A stretch of DNA of 64,000 nucleotides from Clostridia bacterium (GTDB lineage Bacteria > Bacillota > Clostridia > UMGS1883): the NCBI GenBank assembly GCA_017466275.1, contig JAFTUL010000013.1, positions 39,343-103,342 of the forward strand, read 5' to 3'. Made by a program: the position numbers and the translations under genes. Below, one piece after another: positions 14,662 to 57,120 of the stretch. Each line of letters opens with the position of its first letter. The stretch's first letter is position 1. Under the pieces are notes generated by a model, which was not told the DNA's origin, did not search any database, and worked only from the letters and a program-made list of their open reading frames with translations.

Positions 14662-14711
14662 AATGTATAGAAACCTTTAAAAAAGGAAACAAAGTTCCTC
14701 GGAGGCGAGGA

Positions 14712-14822
14712 GGCCCTTTGCCATTTTGAACGCCAAAATGGCGAAAAGCGGTGGGGAATCGGAACCCCCGCGTTTTTGGTACTTTTGGCTCCCAAAAGTA
14801 CATCGTCCCCTGCTATTCAGCA
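14712..14822. repeat. short copy of modular stem-loop repeat family (modules rcZ-rcY-rcX-HP1)
   Basis: Matches the reverse complement of modules in the 56.2 kb and 32.8 kb copies. tttgccattttgaacgccaaaatggcgaaaagcgg is exact. Hairpins ggggaatcggaaccccc, gtacttttggctcccaaaagtac and ctgctgaatagcag are present. Confidence 0.7.
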
Positions 14823-14865
14823 GAAGTTTATGCTTTTTTAAAAGCTTTTCTTTTATTTTTCCTTG

Positions 14866-31316: not shown

Positions 31317-31502
31317 ATGCAAAATGAAGAAGCAATGTGTTACATAACCTACGCCGTACCTGCAAGACTGCTCCCGAATCTTCCCTTGGGAGAGAGAGTT
31401 ATGCCGATAGAAAGTGTAGAGGAAGAGCCGCCAATGCTTTACCCCGAGGGGTTTATGGCCGATTGGTTTTTAAATGGGCGTTTTCCGGAGGATGAAGAAT
31501 AA
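31317..31502 (+). CDS. small acidic hypothetical protein (61 aa)
   Basis: GAGGTGA RBS 5 nt upstream. No similarity recognised. The stop directly abuts a repeat copy. Confidence 0.35.
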   Translation: MQNEEAMCYITYAVPARLLPNLPLGERVMPIESVEEEPPMLYPEGFMADWFLNGRFPEDEE

Positions 31503-31506
31503 AACA

Positions 31507-31645
31507 AAATTCCGCTGAGTAGCGGAGGACGATGTGCTTTTGGGAGCCAAAAGATTTTATAGGGGAACAGGGGGATTGCGATTTCCCCCTTAGCTCCCCT
31601 ATGACCCCATAACCCCTTGAAACGCCCTCGCAGGGGCGTAATATT
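31507..31645. repeat. short copy of modular stem-loop repeat family (HP1-X-Y-W modules)
   Basis: ccgctgagtagcgg, cttttgggagccaaaag, gggggattgcgatttccccc and acgccctcgcaggggcgt are hairpins homologous to modules at 56.2 kb. Confidence 0.7.
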
Positions 31646-31958
31646 TATTGGGCGTGGTTTTCTTTAACTGTCGGGTTTTGTTTTTGAAACTGCCTTGCCT
31701 TTGCGACATCTAAATGCATTGATAAACTTATTATCAGGCATTTATAAATTCTGTCCGCCCGCAGAGGAAAATGATGCGGACAGAATTTTGTCGGTCGGCT
31801 TCGTTGTTTCAAAAACAGTAGTTTGCGAGTATAAAAAACAGAAAAATTCAAAATATAAAAGCGTATAGCATATTAAAACTCTATAAGATACTTCCTAAAA
31901 AATAGTCAATAGAATATACTAATAATACTTAATCTATGCTATTTGCTTGGAGGATTGT

Positions 31959-32282
31959 ATGGAAAAGAAGGCTTTAGGTAAAAAATTACGTGAGGCAAGA
32001 AACAGCAAAAAATATACGCGTGAAGTTCTTGCAGAAAAAGCTGATATAGGCGTTATGTATCTTGGAGAAATTGAAAGAGGGGTAAAACTGCCCAGTTTGA
32101 AAGTTTTTATCAGATTAGTGGAAGCACTTGAAGTTTCTGCTGACTATATTCTCCGAAACGAATTATCTTCAGGGAAAGAGTATATCTTTGATGAAATGAC
32201 TCGAAAACTTGAGAATTTGACACCTCAACAACGAAAGACTGCGACAAGTATTTTAGACGCATATATTGATAATTTATCATAA
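31959..32282 (+). CDS. XRE-family helix-turn-helix transcriptional regulator
   Basis: Cro/C1-type HTH (…REVLAEKADIGVMYLGEIERGVKLPSLKVFIRLVEAL…). ATG after GGAGGA. 107 aa. Confidence 0.75.
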   Translation: MEKKALGKKLREARNSKKYTREVLAEKADIGVMYLGEIERGVKLPSLKVFIRLVEALEVSADYILRNELSSGKEYIFDEMTRKLENLTPQQRKTATSILDAYIDNLS

Positions 32283-32310
32283 GAGCTGAAAATTCAGCTC
32301 TTTTTTTATA
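32283..32310 (+). terminator. terminator after XRE gene
   Basis: aagagctgaaaattcagctcttttttt. Confidence 0.7.
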
Positions 32311-32408
32311 TTTAGCATATGTTTCGACAAAAATCGTCATCCCCTTGTGCTATAATAAGCATATAGCATACATTAAATGCTAATAGCTAATGAAAGGAAG
32401 AAAGAAAA

Positions 32409-32576
32409 ATGCCAATAGGAGTAGAAAAAAGATTAGACGAATTAGGAAGAGTTGTAATTCCAAAAGAACTTAGAGACTTTTATCATCTTAATGAAAAAGT
32501 AACATTGGTTGAAACAGAAAAAGGGATTTTAATAACAAATCCTCAGTATGTAATGGTTAAGGTTGAGGAAAAATAA
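32409..32576 (+). CDS. AbrB/MazE/SpoVT-family DNA-binding domain protein (55 aa, N-domain only)
   Basis: MPIGVEKRLDELGRVVIPKELRDFYHLNEKVTLVETEKGILITNPQYVMVKVEEK resembles the swapped-hairpin domain of AbrB (…VRKVDELGRVVIP.ELR…). Extended -10 TGcTATAAT upstream. Below the 60 aa cutoff, so absent from the ORF track. Confidence 0.75.
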   Translation: MPIGVEKRLDELGRVVIPKELRDFYHLNEKVTLVETEKGILITNPQYVMVKVEEK

Positions 32577-32582
32577 ACGAAA

Positions 32583-32622
32583 AAGACACAAAAAGGGGCA
32601 GGTCTCCTTTTTGTGTCTTTCT
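32583..32622 (+). terminator. terminator after AbrB-like gene
   Basis: gacacaaaaagg...cctttttgtgtc 12 bp stem followed by TTTCTGTTT. Confidence 0.7.
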
Positions 32623-32640
32623 GTTTGAGAAGAAAAGGTG

Positions 32641-32925
32641 GGTTTTGAGAAATTCTTTGTTGACTGGCGTAAAAATCGCTCGTATCAACTTCCTTTGCTG
32701 ACGAGCGATTTTTAGTCCGCAAGGAAATAAGTTTTCCTTTTAGGACGGCGACACCAAAACAAATAATTTCGAAAAACAAAACCATTTTTGTTATTAAGAA
32801 CAAGTATTTGCTTTCTTACGCCCCTGCGAGGGCGTTGAGGGGAGTGGGGAGAATCGCAACTCCCCACCGCTTTTCGCCATTTTGGCGTTCAAAATGGCAA
32901 AGGTCTCTGCGACTCCGCAGAATGG
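32641..32925. repeat. long copy R1 of modular stem-loop repeat family (L-W-Y-Z-HP1rc)
   Basis: 32641..32820 is the reverse complement of 56286..56465. 32818..32920 carries W (acgcccctgcgagggcgt), Y (ggggagaatcgcaactcccc), Z (cgccattttggcgttcaaaatggc) and ctgcgactccgcag. Confidence 0.8.
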
Positions 32926-33013
32926 CTTGCACTTGTGCAAAAAGTTTGAATTTTTTGCAACCAAAAAGGGAATCCAAAAACGAGGATTCCCTTTGTTGTA
33001 TTTAAAAAGTTTT

Positions 33014-34481: not shown

Positions 34482-36860
34482 TTATTTAATTTCAACCACG
34501 GTTACGCCTGCCTCACCCTCACCGTAGCGTCCGGGACGGAAGCTTCTTGCATGTGGATGGTGCCGGAGCATATCTGAAATGGCACTTCTGAGTGCTCCCG
34601 TACCCTTGCCGTGGATAATGGTAACTGTTTCAAAATGCGAAAGTGCCGCATCATCAAGATATTTGTCAACAAGAAGCAGTGCATCATCAACAGTTTCACC
34701 GCGGAGGTCAAGCTCCATCTTCACATCACTGTACATACGGCTTTCGCTTGAAATGTAGCTCTGTGCTTCTTTCTTTTTCTTCTCTTCCTTGGCGGGGGCA
34801 AGGGCGTTTACATTTGTTTTTATCTTCAGGATACCTACCTGCACCGTAAGGTCGCCCTTTTTGTCGGGGAGAGTCAGGACATTGCCGGTAGAGTTCATTG
34901 TCGTAACCTCGACCACCTGACCGAGAGTAATTTTCTTGGGGTCAAGACGTTTTTTGGACTTATTCTTGAAAACATCCTCGCTGAGTTTACCCTCAGCTCT
35001 GTCAAGACCTTTCTTAAGCTCTCGTCTGCCCTCTTCGATAGCGGCACGGTTGTTGCTTGCCGATTCTTCAAAGAGCTTCTGCATCTTTTTGACAATTTCA
35101 TCGGCTTCTTTTTTCGCCTGCTCATATATCTTTTTAGCATCACGACGGGCATCATTAAGAAGCTTTTCCCTCTGTGCCTTGATACGGCTTCTTTCCTTTT
35201 CAGCCTCCTGCTTCTGGGCAAGGGACTGTGCCTTTGCCTCCGTAGCTTCGTCCAATTCCTGCTGTGCCTTTGCACGGTGCTCCTCAAGGGACGTAATTAC
35301 ATCCTCAAAACGGGTGTTTTCCCCGTCAATAAGCTCTTTTGCACGGTCAATAACATCATCGGACAGACCGAGTCTTTTGGAAATGGCAAAAGCATTACTC
35401 TTTCCGGGAACACCTATAAGAAGCTTATAGGTGGGACGAAGTGATGCCACATCAAACTCGCACGCGGCATTTTCAACACGGTCGGTGGAAAGTGCGTACA
35501 GCTTGATTTCGCTGTAATGAGTGGTTGCGGCAACCTTTGCACCAAGGCTCCTTGCCCTTTCTAAAATGGCAATGGCAAGTGCCGCACCCTCCGTCGGGTC
35601 AGTTCCCGAGCAAAGCTCGTCAAAAAGAATAAGGGAGTTGTAGTTTGCATTATCAAGAATTTTTATGATATTTGTCATATGTGCCGAAAAGGTACTGAGT
35701 GACTGCTCAATTGACTGCTCATCACCAATGTCGGCAAAAACGCTGTCAAATACGGAAATCTGACTTCCGCTTCCCGCGGGGATCGCAAGTCCCGATTGTG
35801 CCATCAGGGTGAAAAGCCCCAATGTTTTAAGTGAAACGGTCTTACCGCCAGTGTTGGGGCCTGTTATTACCAATGTATCAAAGTCTTTTCCCAGATATAT
35901 GTCAGTGGGAACGACCTTTTTTGCATCAATTAATGGGTGTCTGCCCTTTTTTATGTTTATAATTCCGTCGTGGTTAAGCTCCGGCACGGAAGCATTCATT
36001 TTCCGTGAAAGCTTTCCCTTGGCAAATGCAAAGTCAAGGTCGATAATTGTCTTGTAATTTGTTGATACATCATCTGCATATTCACTGACAAAAGAGGAAA
36101 GCTCCATAAGGATTCTTTCAATCTCGTCCTTTTCCTGAGAGTGAAGCTCACGGAGTTTATTGTTTATCTCAACTGCCGCCATAGGCTCAACGAAAAGAGT
36201 TGCCCCGCTGGCGGAGCTATCGTGTACAACGCCGGGGACCTGCCCCTTGTGCTCGCTCTTGACGGGAATAACGTATCTGTCACCGCGCATTGATACAATC
36301 GGCTCCTGCAAAAGGTTGGAGTAGGAGGGCGAGTGTACCATATCGTTTAAGACATCACGGATTTTGGAGTTGAGGGAACGCATCTTTCTGCGGATTGCAA
36401 GAAGTTCCGCGGAGGCATCGTCAGCCATTTCCTCATCACTTAGAATTGCAGAAAAGATAGCGTTTTCCAGCTTTTTGTTTTCTGTAAGTGTGGAAAAGAG
36501 GTTGTTTAAAGTCGGGAAAAGATCGCTGTAACCGTCCTCCTCAAAATAGCGGAGAAGTCCTCTTGCCATTCTTAGCGTATGGGCAACAGAAAGAAGCTCA
36601 CTCATAGAAAGTGTGCCGCCTGCGGCACTTCTTTTCGCCGCACCCAGAACATTTCTGACAGGGCTTATAGGCGGAGTGCCTTTTTTTATAATAAGACTCT
36701 CTGCCTCGCTTGTAAAGGAAAGAAGCTCTCTTGCTTCATATATATTTTCCACAGGCAACAATGCGCCGCAGAGCTCTCGCGTCTGGGCGCATACTGCCTG
36801 TTCTTTAAGCATTTCACGTATTGAGTTGAATTCAAGAACTCTTAATGTACGGTCATCCAT
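34482..36860 (-). CDS. mutS2: endonuclease MutS2
   Basis: 792 aa. Walker A GPNTGGKT, coiled-coil linker, C-terminal Smr domain. Confidence 0.9.
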   Translation of the reverse strand: MDDRTLRVLEFNSIREMLKEQAVCAQTRELCGALLPVENIYEARELLSFTSEAESLIIKKGTPPISPVRNVLGAAKRSAAGGTLSMSELLSVAHTLRMARGLLRYFEEDGYSDLFPTLNNLFSTLTENKKLENAIFSAILSDEEMADDASAELLAIRRKMRSLNSKIRDVLNDMVHSPSYSNLLQEPIVSMRGDRYVIPVKSEHKGQVPGVVHDSSASGATLFVEPMAAVEINNKLRELHSQEKDEIERILMELSSFVSEYADDVSTNYKTIIDLDFAFAKGKLSRKMNASVPELNHDGIINIKKGRHPLIDAKKVVPTDIYLGKDFDTLVITGPNTGGKTVSLKTLGLFTLMAQSGLAIPAGSGSQISVFDSVFADIGDEQSIEQSLSTFSAHMTNIIKILDNANYNSLILFDELCSGTDPTEGAALAIAILERARSLGAKVAATTHYSEIKLYALSTDRVENAACEFDVASLRPTYKLLIGVPGKSNAFAISKRLGLSDDVIDRAKELIDGENTRFEDVITSLEEHRAKAQQELDEATEAKAQSLAQKQEAEKERSRIKAQREKLLNDARRDAKKIYEQAKKEADEIVKKMQKLFEESASNNRAAIEEGRRELKKGLDRAEGKLSEDVFKNKSKKRLDPKKITLGQVVEVTTMNSTGNVLTLPDKKGDLTVQVGILKIKTNVNALAPAKEEKKKKEAQSYISSESRMYSDVKMELDLRGETVDDALLLVDKYLDDAALSHFETVTIIHGKGTGALRSAISDMLRHHPHARSFRPGRYGEGEAGVTVVEIK

Positions 36861-36937
36861 TGGGTATCAGTCCTTTTGCTAAAAGGTATTTTGTCGAAAA
36901 ATTTGTTTTTGATTGCAGAAGTGCAAACTATTCTTCT

Positions 36938-37232
36938 TGAGCACTAAACTACGGCTTTTGCAAATTTTCTGTCGGCTACCGTGAAATTGCGAGCACCATT
37001 TTCCTCTGCTGGCGAGCAATTTCAGGCGAACAGGCAACTGAGTGTTGCCTTAAAGCCGGCGGTTCAAAGACGGAAAATTTACAAAAACGAAAACAATACA
37101 GTAAAAGAAAACCACGCCCGCAAAGGGACACGCCCCTGCGAGGGCGTTGAGGGGAGTGGGGAGAATCGCAACTCCCCACCGCTTTTCGCCATTTTGGCGT
37201 TCAAAATGGCAAAGCCCTTAATCGGCACCGAT
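36938..37232. repeat. copy R3 of modular stem-loop repeat family (M-W-Y-Z-end hairpin)
   Basis: ~90% identical to 56467..56766, including acgcccctgcgagggcgt, ggggagaatcgcaactcccc, cgccattttggcgttcaaaatggc and the terminal taatcggcaccgatta hairpin. Confidence 0.8.
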
Positions 37233-37264
37233 TAGTTTTGTTTCTTTTTAAAAGAACCTTATCA

Positions 37265-38494
37265 TCAAAGCTTGATATGCTGAGGTAATCCATTCACTGT
37301 AAGCTGTGAAAGTTCACCCTCAATAAGGGGACGGACATATTCTATAAATTCTTCTGTTACATAGTCGCCGTTTTCGTTAATCATACTCTGGGGAACTTCC
37401 TTGGCAAGGTTTGCAACCTCTCTTACATCATGTGTATCTGTCACGCAGATGTAGGGGTTGTTGGAAACTCTCTTAAGGAGTGCCATTTTGCCTGTTTCAC
37501 CCTCGGACGCTGCTTTAACAGCCGCCTGACCTACTGCAAAAGACTCAGAAATATCGGTTGCTGATGCAATGTGTGATGCACAACGCTGAAGTGTTGAAAG
37601 CTCAACTGCACGTGTCTTGATACCGAGGTCGTTTTTCAGCATTGTGGCAATTGTCTGTGCTGTGCCTGTAAGCATTGTGTGGCCGAATGCGTCAGTACCT
37701 TTTTCGCTTCCAAGCTCACAGACATACTTGCCGTCTTTTGTTCTTACACCTTCGGAAACGGTGATTACAAGGGATTTGCTTCCCTCTTCCATAAGCTGGG
37801 CAACACGGTTCTTTACATATTCGTAGTCAAAGGGAACTTCGGGGAGAAGAATCATTGCAGCACCCTCACAATCGTCACCCTTTGCAAGTGCACTTGCTCC
37901 TGTAAGCCAGCCTGCATCTCTGCCCATAATTTCTACAATTGTTACACTCTTGAGGTCGTAAACAAGGCTGTCACGGACAAGCTCCTTGGTAACTGTTGCA
38001 ACAAATTTTGCCGCACTGCCAAAACCGGGAGTATGGTCTGTCACAACAAGGTCATTGTCAATTGTCTTGGGAACGCCCATAAACTTTATGTCTGTTTTCT
38101 TGTATTCGTCATTATAAATACTGAGCTTCTTAACGGTATCCATAGAGTCGTTACCCCCAATGTAGAAGAAGCCCTTAATGTTGTGCTTTTCAAAAATCTT
38201 GAAAAGCTTTTCATAAACTTCGTTGCCCTCTACGGGTTCGGGAAGCTTGAAACGGCAGGAGCCAAGGTAGGAAGAGGGAGTTCTCTTTAAAAGCTCCAGT
38301 TCGCGGTCCGTTGTGATTTTTTCACACATATCAATGAAGTTCTCCTGAAGGAGTCCCTCAACACCGCCGAGCATACCGTAAACCTTGCCCTCTGTCAGTT
38401 TCTTACCTGCATCAAAAACACCTGCAAGTGTTGCGTTGATTGCAGCGGTGGGACCGCCTGACTGTCCTATAATAATATTTCCTTTGATTTTCAT
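37265..38494 (-). CDS. pfp: pyrophosphate-dependent 6-phosphofructokinase (PFK group with ~410 aa; Pfp)
   Basis: PFK motifs GGPTAAIN, GGDGS-like and PKTIDND. Length and sequence are typical of PPi-PFK. Confidence 0.75.
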   Translation of the reverse strand: MKIKGNIIIGQSGGPTAAINATLAGVFDAGKKLTEGKVYGMLGGVEGLLQENFIDMCEKITTDRELELLKRTPSSYLGSCRFKLPEPVEGNEVYEKLFKIFEKHNIKGFFYIGGNDSMDTVKKLSIYNDEYKKTDIKFMGVPKTIDNDLVVTDHTPGFGSAAKFVATVTKELVRDSLVYDLKSVTIVEIMGRDAGWLTGASALAKGDDCEGAAMILLPEVPFDYEYVKNRVAQLMEEGSKSLVITVSEGVRTKDGKYVCELGSEKGTDAFGHTMLTGTAQTIATMLKNDLGIKTRAVELSTLQRCASHIASATDISESFAVGQAAVKAASEGETGKMALLKRVSNNPYICVTDTHDVREVANLAKEVPQSMINENGDYVTEEFIEYVRPLIEGELSQLTVNGLPQHIKL

Positions 38495-56090: not shown

Positions 56091-56177
56091 TGAAAACTCA
56101 CCTCAAGGATATTTTACTCTCTTTTACGATTGTGCGTATACGCACACGCGTGCTACACTGCAAGATTTGCAAACAAT

Positions 56178-56766
56178 TTCTGCGGAGTCGCAGAGGACGG
56201 TGTACTTTTGGGAGCCAAAAGTACCAAAAACGCGGGGGTTCCGATTCCCCCGCACCCCTGAAACGGCCTCGCAGGGGCGTAAAAAAGCAAATACTTGTTT
56301 TTAATTACAAAGATGGTTTTGTTTTTCGAAATTATTTGTTTTTGTGTCGCCGTCCTAAAAGGAAAACTTATTTCCTTGCGGACTAAAAATCGCTCGTCAG
56401 CAGCGGAAGTTGATACGAGCGATTTTTACGCCAGTCAACAAAGAATTTCTCAAAACCCGACTGTTCTACCGAAGCACTAAACTAAGGTTTTTGCAAATTT
56501 TCTGTCGGCTACCGTGAAATTGCGAGTATTAGTTTCCTCTGCAGGCGAGCAATTTCAGGCGAACAGGCAACTGAGTGTTGCCTTAAAGCCGACGGTTCAA
56601 AGACGGAAAATTTGCAAAAACGAAAACGATACATTAAAAGAAAACCACGCCCAAGAAATATTACGCCCCTGCGAGGGCGTTGAGGGGTGTGGGGAGAATC
56701 GCAACTCCCCACCGCTTTTCGCCATTTTGGCGTTCAAAATGGCACTCCCCTAATCGGCTCCGATTA
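56178..56766. repeat. largest composite copy R2 of modular stem-loop repeat family (HP1-X-Y-W / rcL / M / W-Y-Z-end hairpin)
   Basis: 56180..56280 carries the ctgcggagtcgcag, gtacttttgggagccaaaagtac, gggggttccgattccccc and acggcctcgcaggggcgt hairpins. 56286..56465 is the reverse complement of 32641..32820. 56467..56766 is ~90% identical to 36938..37232. Confidence 0.8.
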
Positions 56767-56845
56767 AATACCTGCAATTTCTTGCAATAAAAAACAAAAT
56801 TTTGCAATAAAAAATACTTTTTTGCTAAAAGTATGCGAAAAACTC

Positions 56846-56875
56846 TTGATTTTCCCCCTGCCTTGGTATTATAAT
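56846..56875 (+). promoter_or_regulatory. strong sigma-A promoter of potABCD
   Basis: TTGATT, 18 nt spacer, TATAAT. Two TTGCAATAAAAAA direct repeats lie upstream (56782..56794 and 56802..56814). Confidence 0.55.
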
Positions 56876-57120
56876 ATAATAAGCAAACGATTTCTTTGGA
56901 ATCTTAATGCAAATATAGGACCACTCTCATGGGAGTCGAGGCCATACGGACAGCCGGGTCCACTGCCTATTGATTGAGTTAAAAGCTCAGTTTTATAAGT
57001 TGGTTACTTTATAACCGAAATGCGTAATTGCGCTAACTTGTGAAATGGTCAATAAGAGTAGTGACTCTGTATGTCCAATATCTTAAATTTTCTTAGGAAA
57101 TTTGTCTTTTTTGAGATATT

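Follow-up and report, generated by a model that had tools for sequence, protein, structure and literature searches.

Within a 64,000-nucleotide (nt) window of a Clostridia bacterium contig (JAFTUL010000013.1; all coordinates refer to this window, the whole stretch of DNA analysed), the 404-nt spacer between pfp and mutS2 holds a repeat copy that we call R3 (36927–37234, + strand). Both flanking genes lie on the − strand: pfp (37265–38494; PRK14072, 473 bits) encodes a pyrophosphate (PPi)-dependent phosphofructokinase, and R3 is downstream of it and upstream of mutS2 (34482–36860; TIGR01069, 944 bits). R3 is one M-type unit of a repeat family and is similar to a second copy at 56460–56766, with 90.3% identity over 308 nt (E = 4e-119) and no large gaps. 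This bears out the repeat match of about 90% claimed in a first-pass annotation of the DNA, and both of the substitution patches quoted there (gcaccattttcc / gtattagtttcc and cgcccgcaaagggacacg / cgcccaagaaatattacg) are found in the alignment. The hairpin ggcaac-tgagt-gttgcc and the hairpins downstream of it are kept in both window copies, as was also claimed. The terminal hairpin is likewise retained (taatcggCAccgatta versus taatcggCTccgatta), but the T-rich run said to follow it is not: after this hairpin R3 has gttttgtttcttttt, which is locus flank, and the 56-kb copy has aatacctgcaatttcttgcaa, which is a fifth hairpin of the repeat. R3 does lie in the spacer, but it does not fill the entire region as proposed; it spans about 300 of the 404 nt, roughly three quarters, and 36861–36912 and 37235–37264 are locus-specific sequence outside it. 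That first reading overlooked four features: R3 is half of a head-to-head pair, its 'M module' is a three-way junction common to three sequence types, conservation of the element at pfp–mutS2 is strong, and no sigma-70-like promoter for mutS2 is recognisable within it.

Architecture and fold of the repeat unit

We derived the anatomy of a unit by aligning R3 with the other window copies and with copies from related metagenome and metagenome-assembled genome (MAG) contigs, whose loci are numbered with the prefix L. A unit of ~300 nt consists of a short leader, a 152-nt three-way-junction (3WJ) domain, an A-rich linker and hairpins HP1–HP4, followed in most other copies by HP5. In R3 the 3WJ domain lies at 36945–37096 (+; 168 bits with R1, a covariance model built from M and B junctions) and is formed by the P1 stem (36953–36973 paired with 37069–37088, +), the P2 hairpin (36982–37024, +), with the pyrimidine loop ttttcctc at 36999–37006, and the P3 hairpin ggcaac-tgagt-gttgcc (37033–37049, +), with the loop tgagt. 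The linker (37097–37129, +) carries an R3-specific cgcccgcaaaggg patch and is the least conserved part of R3 (87.9% identity to L030). HP1 (acgcccctgcgagggcgt, 37130–37147, +) has five matches in the window at ≤2 mismatches against 0 expected, with ggcc for gggc in the B arm at 56263–56280. HP2 (gtgggga-gaatcgcaac-tccccac, 37156–37179, +) has six sites against 0 expected; its loop, AATCGSAA, is conserved and its stem covaries among copy types, the variants gtgggga, gcggggg, aggggga, ccgggg and ttgggg being complementary in every case. HP3 (gccattttg-gcgttc-caaaatggc, 37188–37210, +) covaries with gtacttttgg/ccaaaagtac and gttcttttgg/caaaagaac, and HP4 (taatcgg-ca-ccgatta, 37219–37234, +), the terminal hairpin of R3, with ctgcg/cgcag, ccgct/agcgg and cctcg/cgagg. 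HP5, of the form TTGCA-N3-4-TGCAA, is missing from R3. All of HP1–HP5 are G+C-rich hairpins of 14–24 nt whose combinations differ among copies and which occur in both orientations. At its 5′ end the unit begins only a few to ~15 nt upstream of P1, and it therefore cannot carry its own promoter. Two M units from different loci and lineages, at L022:10200–10300 (−) and in L005 (about 1186–1294), share the same ~150-nt nested insertion inside HP2; it is flanked by GAATCG direct repeats, has no Rfam match and is perhaps a further small element with the hairpin loop as its target.

Five 3WJ units, which fall into three sequence types (M, B and C), and one hairpin-only cluster are present in the window. 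R1 places the five 3WJ domains at 31672–31825 (−), 32633–32785 (+), 36945–37096 (+), 56313–56465 (−) and 56478–56629 (+). The last two belong to a complete head-to-head pair at 56151–56790, comprising a B arm on the − strand and an M arm on the + strand (R1, 167 and 171 bits), each of which terminates in HP4 and HP5. The 5′ ends of these arms are ~30 nt apart and the arms are inverted copies of each other (65% over 543 nt, 76% across the hairpin clusters), forming a 0.65-kb imperfect palindrome. Its outermost 8 nt match at 7 of 8 positions (YTGCAAGA), the next ~20 nt match poorly, and single units have no terminal inverted repeats. Type B (56168–56467, −) has the same architecture as M with different stem sequences and shares 65% identity with the M type of R3. 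A single B-type unit at 32633–32945 (+) carries an M-type hairpin cluster, of which 32818–32902 is 100% identical to 37130–37214 of R3, and a C-type unit at 31502–31835 (−) has the same fold with other stem sequences (R1, 66 bits, E = 2e-12, at 31672–31825). The hairpin-only cluster, a palindrome at 14675–14830 between two + strand genes, is built of the same modules with the 3WJ absent, in the order reverse-complemented HP4 and HP3, then HP2, HP3 and HP4.

The C unit (−) and the single B unit (+), which together span 31502–32945, lie with their 5′ ends pointing inward on either side of two small accessory genes. The pair consists of an XRE-type helix-turn-helix (HTH) gene (31947–32282) and a 55-amino-acid (aa) open reading frame (ORF; 32410–32577) whose resemblance to AbrB/SpoVT-type proteins was judged by eye, with no family search. 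In relatives, the slot beside gdhA is occupied by ribbon-helix-helix (RHH), RhuM, TIR/WD40 and Band7 genes (L027) or by a C_GCAxxG protein (L020), or is empty (L028); L018 has the same HTH/AbrB-like gene pair with the repeat units absent.

One fold is maintained across the M, B and C types through compensatory change. R1 recovers C copies at 64–66 bits (E about 1e-12), and across 20 units, in an alignment fitted to the model, 96.8% of pair cells in the 3WJ are standard pairs and 21 of 39 pairs have double changes. None of 500 shuffles pairs as well, and slid partners are only 37–52% paired. Hairpins HP2–HP4 have double changes in 12 of 22 pairs. Two loops are conserved across types, WYTTCCKY in P2 and TRAGT in P3, and M junctions are at least 88% alike throughout. 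The strand that folds can be approached in the same way: on the modelled strand, which for R3 is the window + strand, the family has 34 G·U cells versus 5 A·C cells, confined to about eight columns, and in 13 of 19 junctions the sense strand has the better fold, with a mean advantage of 3.6 kcal/mol. These asymmetries are suggestive of the window + strand as the active strand of R3. The converse idea that substitutions in R3 are tuned to the transcribed (−) strand is unsupported, as the + strand is the better-folding one in the orthologous M copies of L007 and L004.

Rearrangement, conservation and distribution

Units are frequently paired head-to-head over ~0.65 kb, in a form resembling a fold-back, MITE-like element, and the same arrangement occurs at pfp–mutS2 in relatives and as a C+M pair in L006. 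Hairpin clusters are also exchanged between types, with M units of L001 and L004 carrying C-type clusters and those of L003 and L006 carrying B-type clusters. Four states are found between pfp and mutS2: an M+B pair (L014, L017, L030, L004 and L007); M alone (the window and L028); the whole pair inverted relative to the genes (L027 and L005); and a short unrelated spacer (129 and 263 nt) with no element (L018, L019 and L020, in which mutS2 is about 85% identical). The element-less spacer at L020:3738–4000 is built of a repeated TTTAGCT-type motif. Separately, L028 has an unrelated extra insertion of ~270 nt with long hairpins downstream of clpB (L028:1468–1939), where L027 and L030 have about 200 nt.

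The M-alone state is found in two lineages whose mutS2 genes differ by 7%, and comparison with the paired state suggests how it arose. In L030 and L014 the whole B arm is kept between two AGAATAGT copies, and the sequences of L028 and the window are the exact deletion product. A remnant of the deleted arm lies at 36913–36934 (−): its HP5, ttgcacttctgcaa, is the reverse complement of 36913–36926, and the deletion junction, agaatagt, is the reverse complement of 36927–36934. R3 is thus a former pair that lost its B arm between AGAATAGT direct repeats. These repeats are internal to the pair and therefore explain deletion, not insertion. Truncated pairs resembling that of R3 are present in L002 and L022, and single units, R3 among them, can derive from pairs by deletion between short direct repeats.

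At pfp–mutS2, the element and its flanks show about the same degree of conservation as non-synonymous sites in the two adjacent genes. Between the window and L030, synonymous (dS) and non-synonymous (dN) divergence are 0.65 and 0.016 for pfp and 0.53 and 0.027 for mutS2, and the divergence (K) of R3 is 0.031; between the window and L028, mutS2 has a dS of 0.34 and a dN of 0.013, and R3 a K of 0.014. R3 orthologues thus diverge about 20 times more slowly than synonymous sites of pfp and mutS2 (K/dS about 0.05). Identity between the window and L030 is 97.4% in the junction, 99.0% in the hairpin cluster and 98.5–100% in the unique flanks, versus 87.9% in the linker and 87–91% in adjacent coding sequence. 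Across lineages, the locus-specific flanks of R3 (36861–36926 and 37235–37264) are 97–100% identical versus 87–93% for adjacent coding sequence, and because they match the conservation level of the element, the whole spacer, beyond the repeat alone, looks constrained. Near-identical units also occur across loci and lineages (L005 versus L022, 99.3%; the B unit of L017 versus the B arm of the 56-kb pair, 98.7%) in a clade whose flanking genes are 88–94% identical to those of the window. The copies are thus not decaying neutrally; they are kept by purifying selection, or are alike through conversion or re-copying. What selection preserves is the fold of each arm and the two loop sequences.

The position and structure of R3 also bear on its neighbours. 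On the strand of pfp and mutS2, four strong hairpins come 3′ of the pfp stop, as does an R3-specific hairpin with a T-run after it (37142–37113); two terminator-like sites at 37142–37113 on this strand are formed by the R3-specific linker patch, which orthologues do not conserve. It is probable that R3 terminates or stabilises the transcript of pfp. No sigma-70-like promoter was recognised on either strand of 36700–37400, and so no mutS2 promoter is seen inside R3; from the layout of the spacer, signals for mutS2 expression would have to sit within or beside it. As the element fills most of the space available for pfp termination and mutS2 signals, it likely affects expression of mutS2, a recombination/repair gene. 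A candidate additional module beside the mutS2 ribosome-binding site ('HP6') was dropped, being confined to the pfp–mutS2 locus and its orthologues.

All sightings of the family to date come from a small group of uncultured Clostridia of the ruminant gut. An exact-pattern scan for a 23-nt core in 185,579 GTDB representative genomes found 7 loci in 5 'Clostridia bacterium' MAGs only. Exact-pattern scans gave 0 matches in viral contigs and 0 for the M core in Joint Genome Institute (JGI) metagenome contigs; a hairpin pattern had one JGI match, restricted to the 22-nt pattern with flanks unlike those of units and therefore uninformative. BLAST of the 0.7-kb pair against phage and plasmid collections gave no match. 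Rfam 15, whose families include HEARO, IS605-orfB, ROOL, GOLLD, OLE and raiA, returned nothing on the element when searched with the window at gathering threshold, and relaxed searches at E ≤ 10 (36800–37300) and E ≤ 5 (56100–56850 and L022) returned only chance-level matches of ≤20 bits. Sequence-based and keyword literature searches found no published description of the element. Copies coincide with the ends of assembled contigs: of 10 listed contigs carrying this pfp, 6 end 80–105 nt beyond its stop, within the hairpins of R3, and L009–L013, L016, L025 and L031 end inside the repeat. The repeat family is thus a systematic cause of assembly breaks in the clade and explains intergenic breaks there. 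Next to the 56-kb pair, the window contains an ldcC/SpF59 RNA motif (56918–56969, +; RF02440, 59.9 bits, E = 3e-8) in the leader of a potABCD-like polyamine ATP-binding cassette (ABC) transporter operon (57180 onwards), with a promoter-like site, TTGATT-18-TATAAT, upstream of it at 56846–56875.

Interpretation and alternatives

[quoted passage not shown] Such a family would multiply or be homogenised as a non-autonomous element, its folded single strand, either RNA or single-stranded DNA (ssDNA), serving as substrate for machinery encoded elsewhere; a ssDNA enzyme, an RNA intermediate or recombination alone could do the copying. R3 would in addition probably act as a structured spacer or terminator region between pfp and mutS2.

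Several observations weigh against this interpretation. No transposase, TnpB/IscB, recombinase, nuclease or REP-associated tyrosine transposase (RAYT, in which REP denotes a repetitive extragenic palindromic sequence) was found among 18 window proteins and in precomputed Pfam lists for called genes in roughly 100 kb or more of related loci, which showed housekeeping genes only. There is likewise no target-site duplication at the outer boundaries of the 56-kb pair or the pfp–mutS2 pair in either orientation. No clean empty site was found, and because the spacers of L018, L019 and L020 are unrelated, the boundaries of the element are not fixable from empty sites. Copies of the unit share no conserved sigma-70-like promoter or terminator, and they have no consistent orientation towards the genes beside them. 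The − strand of R3 itself folds slightly better than the + strand (−116.8 versus −110.2 kcal/mol for the unit and −53.7 versus −50.8 kcal/mol for the 3WJ), and its two P1 mismatches are C·A on the + strand, so the strand assignment rests on the family and not on R3. The sample is small, with about 20 units that come from no more than nine loci of a few closely related lineages, and most double changes in the model-fitted alignment trace to two to three splits between types. Finally, orthologues do not decay like dead transposon copies, and on these comparisons host function or gene conversion would fit better than pure selfishness.

With its three sequence types on one fold, its conserved loops and a K/dS of about 0.05, the ~300-nt unit could belong to an undescribed class of functional structured nucleic acid, for example the RNA or ssDNA part of an unrecognised mobile or recombination system, and not be a passive repeat; we hold this as a tentative idea. 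Such a system might mark the borders of variable gene slots, such as that of the HTH/AbrB-like pair at 31.9–32.6 kb.

Among the rival explanations, which by weight run from a non-coding RNA family through a REP/RAYT-type ssDNA system and an invertible switch to coding ORFs, the first holds that units are multi-copy small RNA (sRNA) genes or cis-elements of ~300 nt, in which contacts with targets or a protein would be made by the pyrimidine-rich, anti-Shine-Dalgarno-like P2 loop (UUUUCCUC) and by the P3 loop, R3 being kept by the host for this purpose. CU-rich loops pairing with ribosome-binding sites are common in Firmicutes sRNAs. The compensatory changes, the conserved loops and the G·U excess on one strand are what such a family would show, as are the K/dS of about 0.05 at orthologous sites and a linker less conserved than the paired parts. 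However, the shared sequence has no promoter-like site upstream of P1 and no terminator after HP4 or HP5, units have no consistent orientation relative to neighbours, close relatives show deletion or inversion of arms, sister lineages lack the element, and Rfam has no match. We consider an sRNA family unlikely, while still taking it seriously.

A REP/BIME-type system, in which the hairpins are REP-like units processed as ssDNA by a RAYT or an IS200/IS605-type HUH enzyme and the 3WJ is an associated motif, we regard as doubtful. Its host roles would be termination, messenger RNA stabilisation and protein binding. It would account for the mosaic arrays in which 16–24-nt G+C-rich palindromes occur in either orientation, the hairpin-only cluster at 14675–14830 among them, for the absence of target-site duplication, as HUH mechanisms predict, and for strand-specific folding; the terminator-like sites on the pfp strand at 37142–37113 and the properties of BIMEs reviewed in PMC3184786 also speak for it. 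Yet nothing in the account of BIMEs in PMC3184786 corresponds to a 152-nt 3WJ with conserved loops, and stem sequences vary between types, contrary to a single sequence-specific enzyme. No RAYT, TnpA or other Y1 transposase gene was seen among the window proteins and related-locus gene lists examined, and no GTAG/CGTC tag was noticed on reading the hairpin feet, of which no systematic scan was made.

It is improbable that the ~0.6-kb pair lying upstream of mutS2 works as an inverton, with a site-specific recombinase flipping it to modulate mutS2 expression. The whole pair is indeed inverted in L027 and L005 relative to L030, L014 and L017, and the B-arm 3WJs of L027 and L017 are 99.3% identical although oppositely oriented. 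However, the flipped segment is not bounded by inverted repeats, its two ends have unlike outermost hairpins, HP5 moves with its own arm, the same pair is present at other loci and no recombinase gene is nearby. Moreover, both arms read outwards, so either orientation shows a similar arm to mutS2.

Of the ORFs that overlap R3, one of 67 aa (36976–37179, −; counterpart 56509–56712, −) and one of 84 aa (36981–37235, +), neither is a gene. Between the two window copies, the 67-aa ORF has 18 nt differences, distributed 9/3/6 over codon positions, and 10 amino-acid changes, and substitutions in the 84-aa ORF are distributed 11/7/4; this agrees with the first-pass view that the substitutions do not preserve the 67-aa ORFs. 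Elsewhere the 67-aa frame is broken by a stop (L002), a stop and a frameshift (L001) or a frameshift (L006), and the 84-aa frame by stops (L001 and L027) or a frameshift (L006), such that codon-position counts and broken frames give no sign of purifying selection on either. A search of 5.8 billion predicted proteins with the concatenated 151-aa and 69-aa ORFs of L017 and the 67-aa ORF as bait found one cluster only, which yielded a single further locus, L022. That either ORF codes for a small protein, with the repeat as a gene duplication, is hardly credible: both frames are open in both window copies, a called 151-aa gene spans the element in one relative and the protein collection includes one 157-aa ORF cluster, but there is no third-position excess, stops and frameshifts occur elsewhere, the protein search found a single cluster and the ORF start sits within a hairpin whose sequence differs among copy types. 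The ORFs overlapping R3 are artefacts, and small ORFs across these repeats should not be called genes. Absent coding constraint, compensatory changes and multiple copies together support the earlier description of R3 as a structured repeat copy whose overlapping ORFs are probably not genes.

Comparison with known interspersed elements

In Streptococcus pneumoniae, BOX elements are built of modules (boxA-boxB-boxC) and can affect the expression of neighbouring genes. They differ from the repeat described here in that their sequence and module set are unrelated, and they lack head-to-head pairing and a 3WJ. Guide RNAs of mobile elements, including HEARO/IscB omega RNA, TnpB omega RNA and IS110 bridge RNA, are multi-copy, structured and a few hundred nucleotides long, and may lack an adjacent ORF. 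As a resemblance only, such orphan guide RNAs share with the present family a structure conserved above sequence between subtypes; by contrast, the present element has no Rfam match even at E ≤ 10, and no IscB, TnpB or IS110 gene is present at any of about nine loci.

REP/BIME and REPIN–RAYT systems are likewise mosaics of short G+C-rich palindromes that occur in both orientations in intergenic sequence, often at gene ends, and likely terminate or stabilise transcripts. The present family differs in its large 3WJ with conserved loops and its Clostridia host, with no RAYT seen and no GTAG/CGTC tag noticed. MITEs of the fold-back type and Correia/NEMIS elements share with it a non-coding, multi-copy nature, a foldable inverted-repeat pair, presence/absence polymorphism and contig breaks at copies. 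A MITE hallmark fails here because no target-site duplication was found; nor was a parent or autonomous insertion sequence (IS) found, the arms are only 65% alike yet each has its own fold, and orthologues are conserved.

The bcr repeats are also interspersed intergenic elements of Firmicutes that have no transposase, are distributed without conservation among close strains and keep a multi-stem single-strand structure through compensatory changes (PMC3184786). Among them, bcr1 of the Bacillus cereus group is ~155 bp long, has flanking 5-bp direct repeats and is transcribed (Okstad 2004, Klevan 2007, Kristoffersen 2011, reviewed in PMC3184786). It is thus half the size of the present unit, which differs from a transcribed element with 5-bp repeats in having no duplication, a 3WJ with a hairpin array and head-to-head pairs; we claim no sequence relation between the two. 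Compared with the bcr, MITE and BIME kinds, the family is new in adding a large 3WJ with conserved loops and in being unusually conserved. Strong constraint is here combined with structural fluidity, as arms undergo deletion, exchange and inversion among close relatives. MITE- or REP-like repeats do not usually show this combination, and on that account the family could reasonably be considered as a functional RNA or ssDNA module, or as what an unrecognised mobility system acts on.

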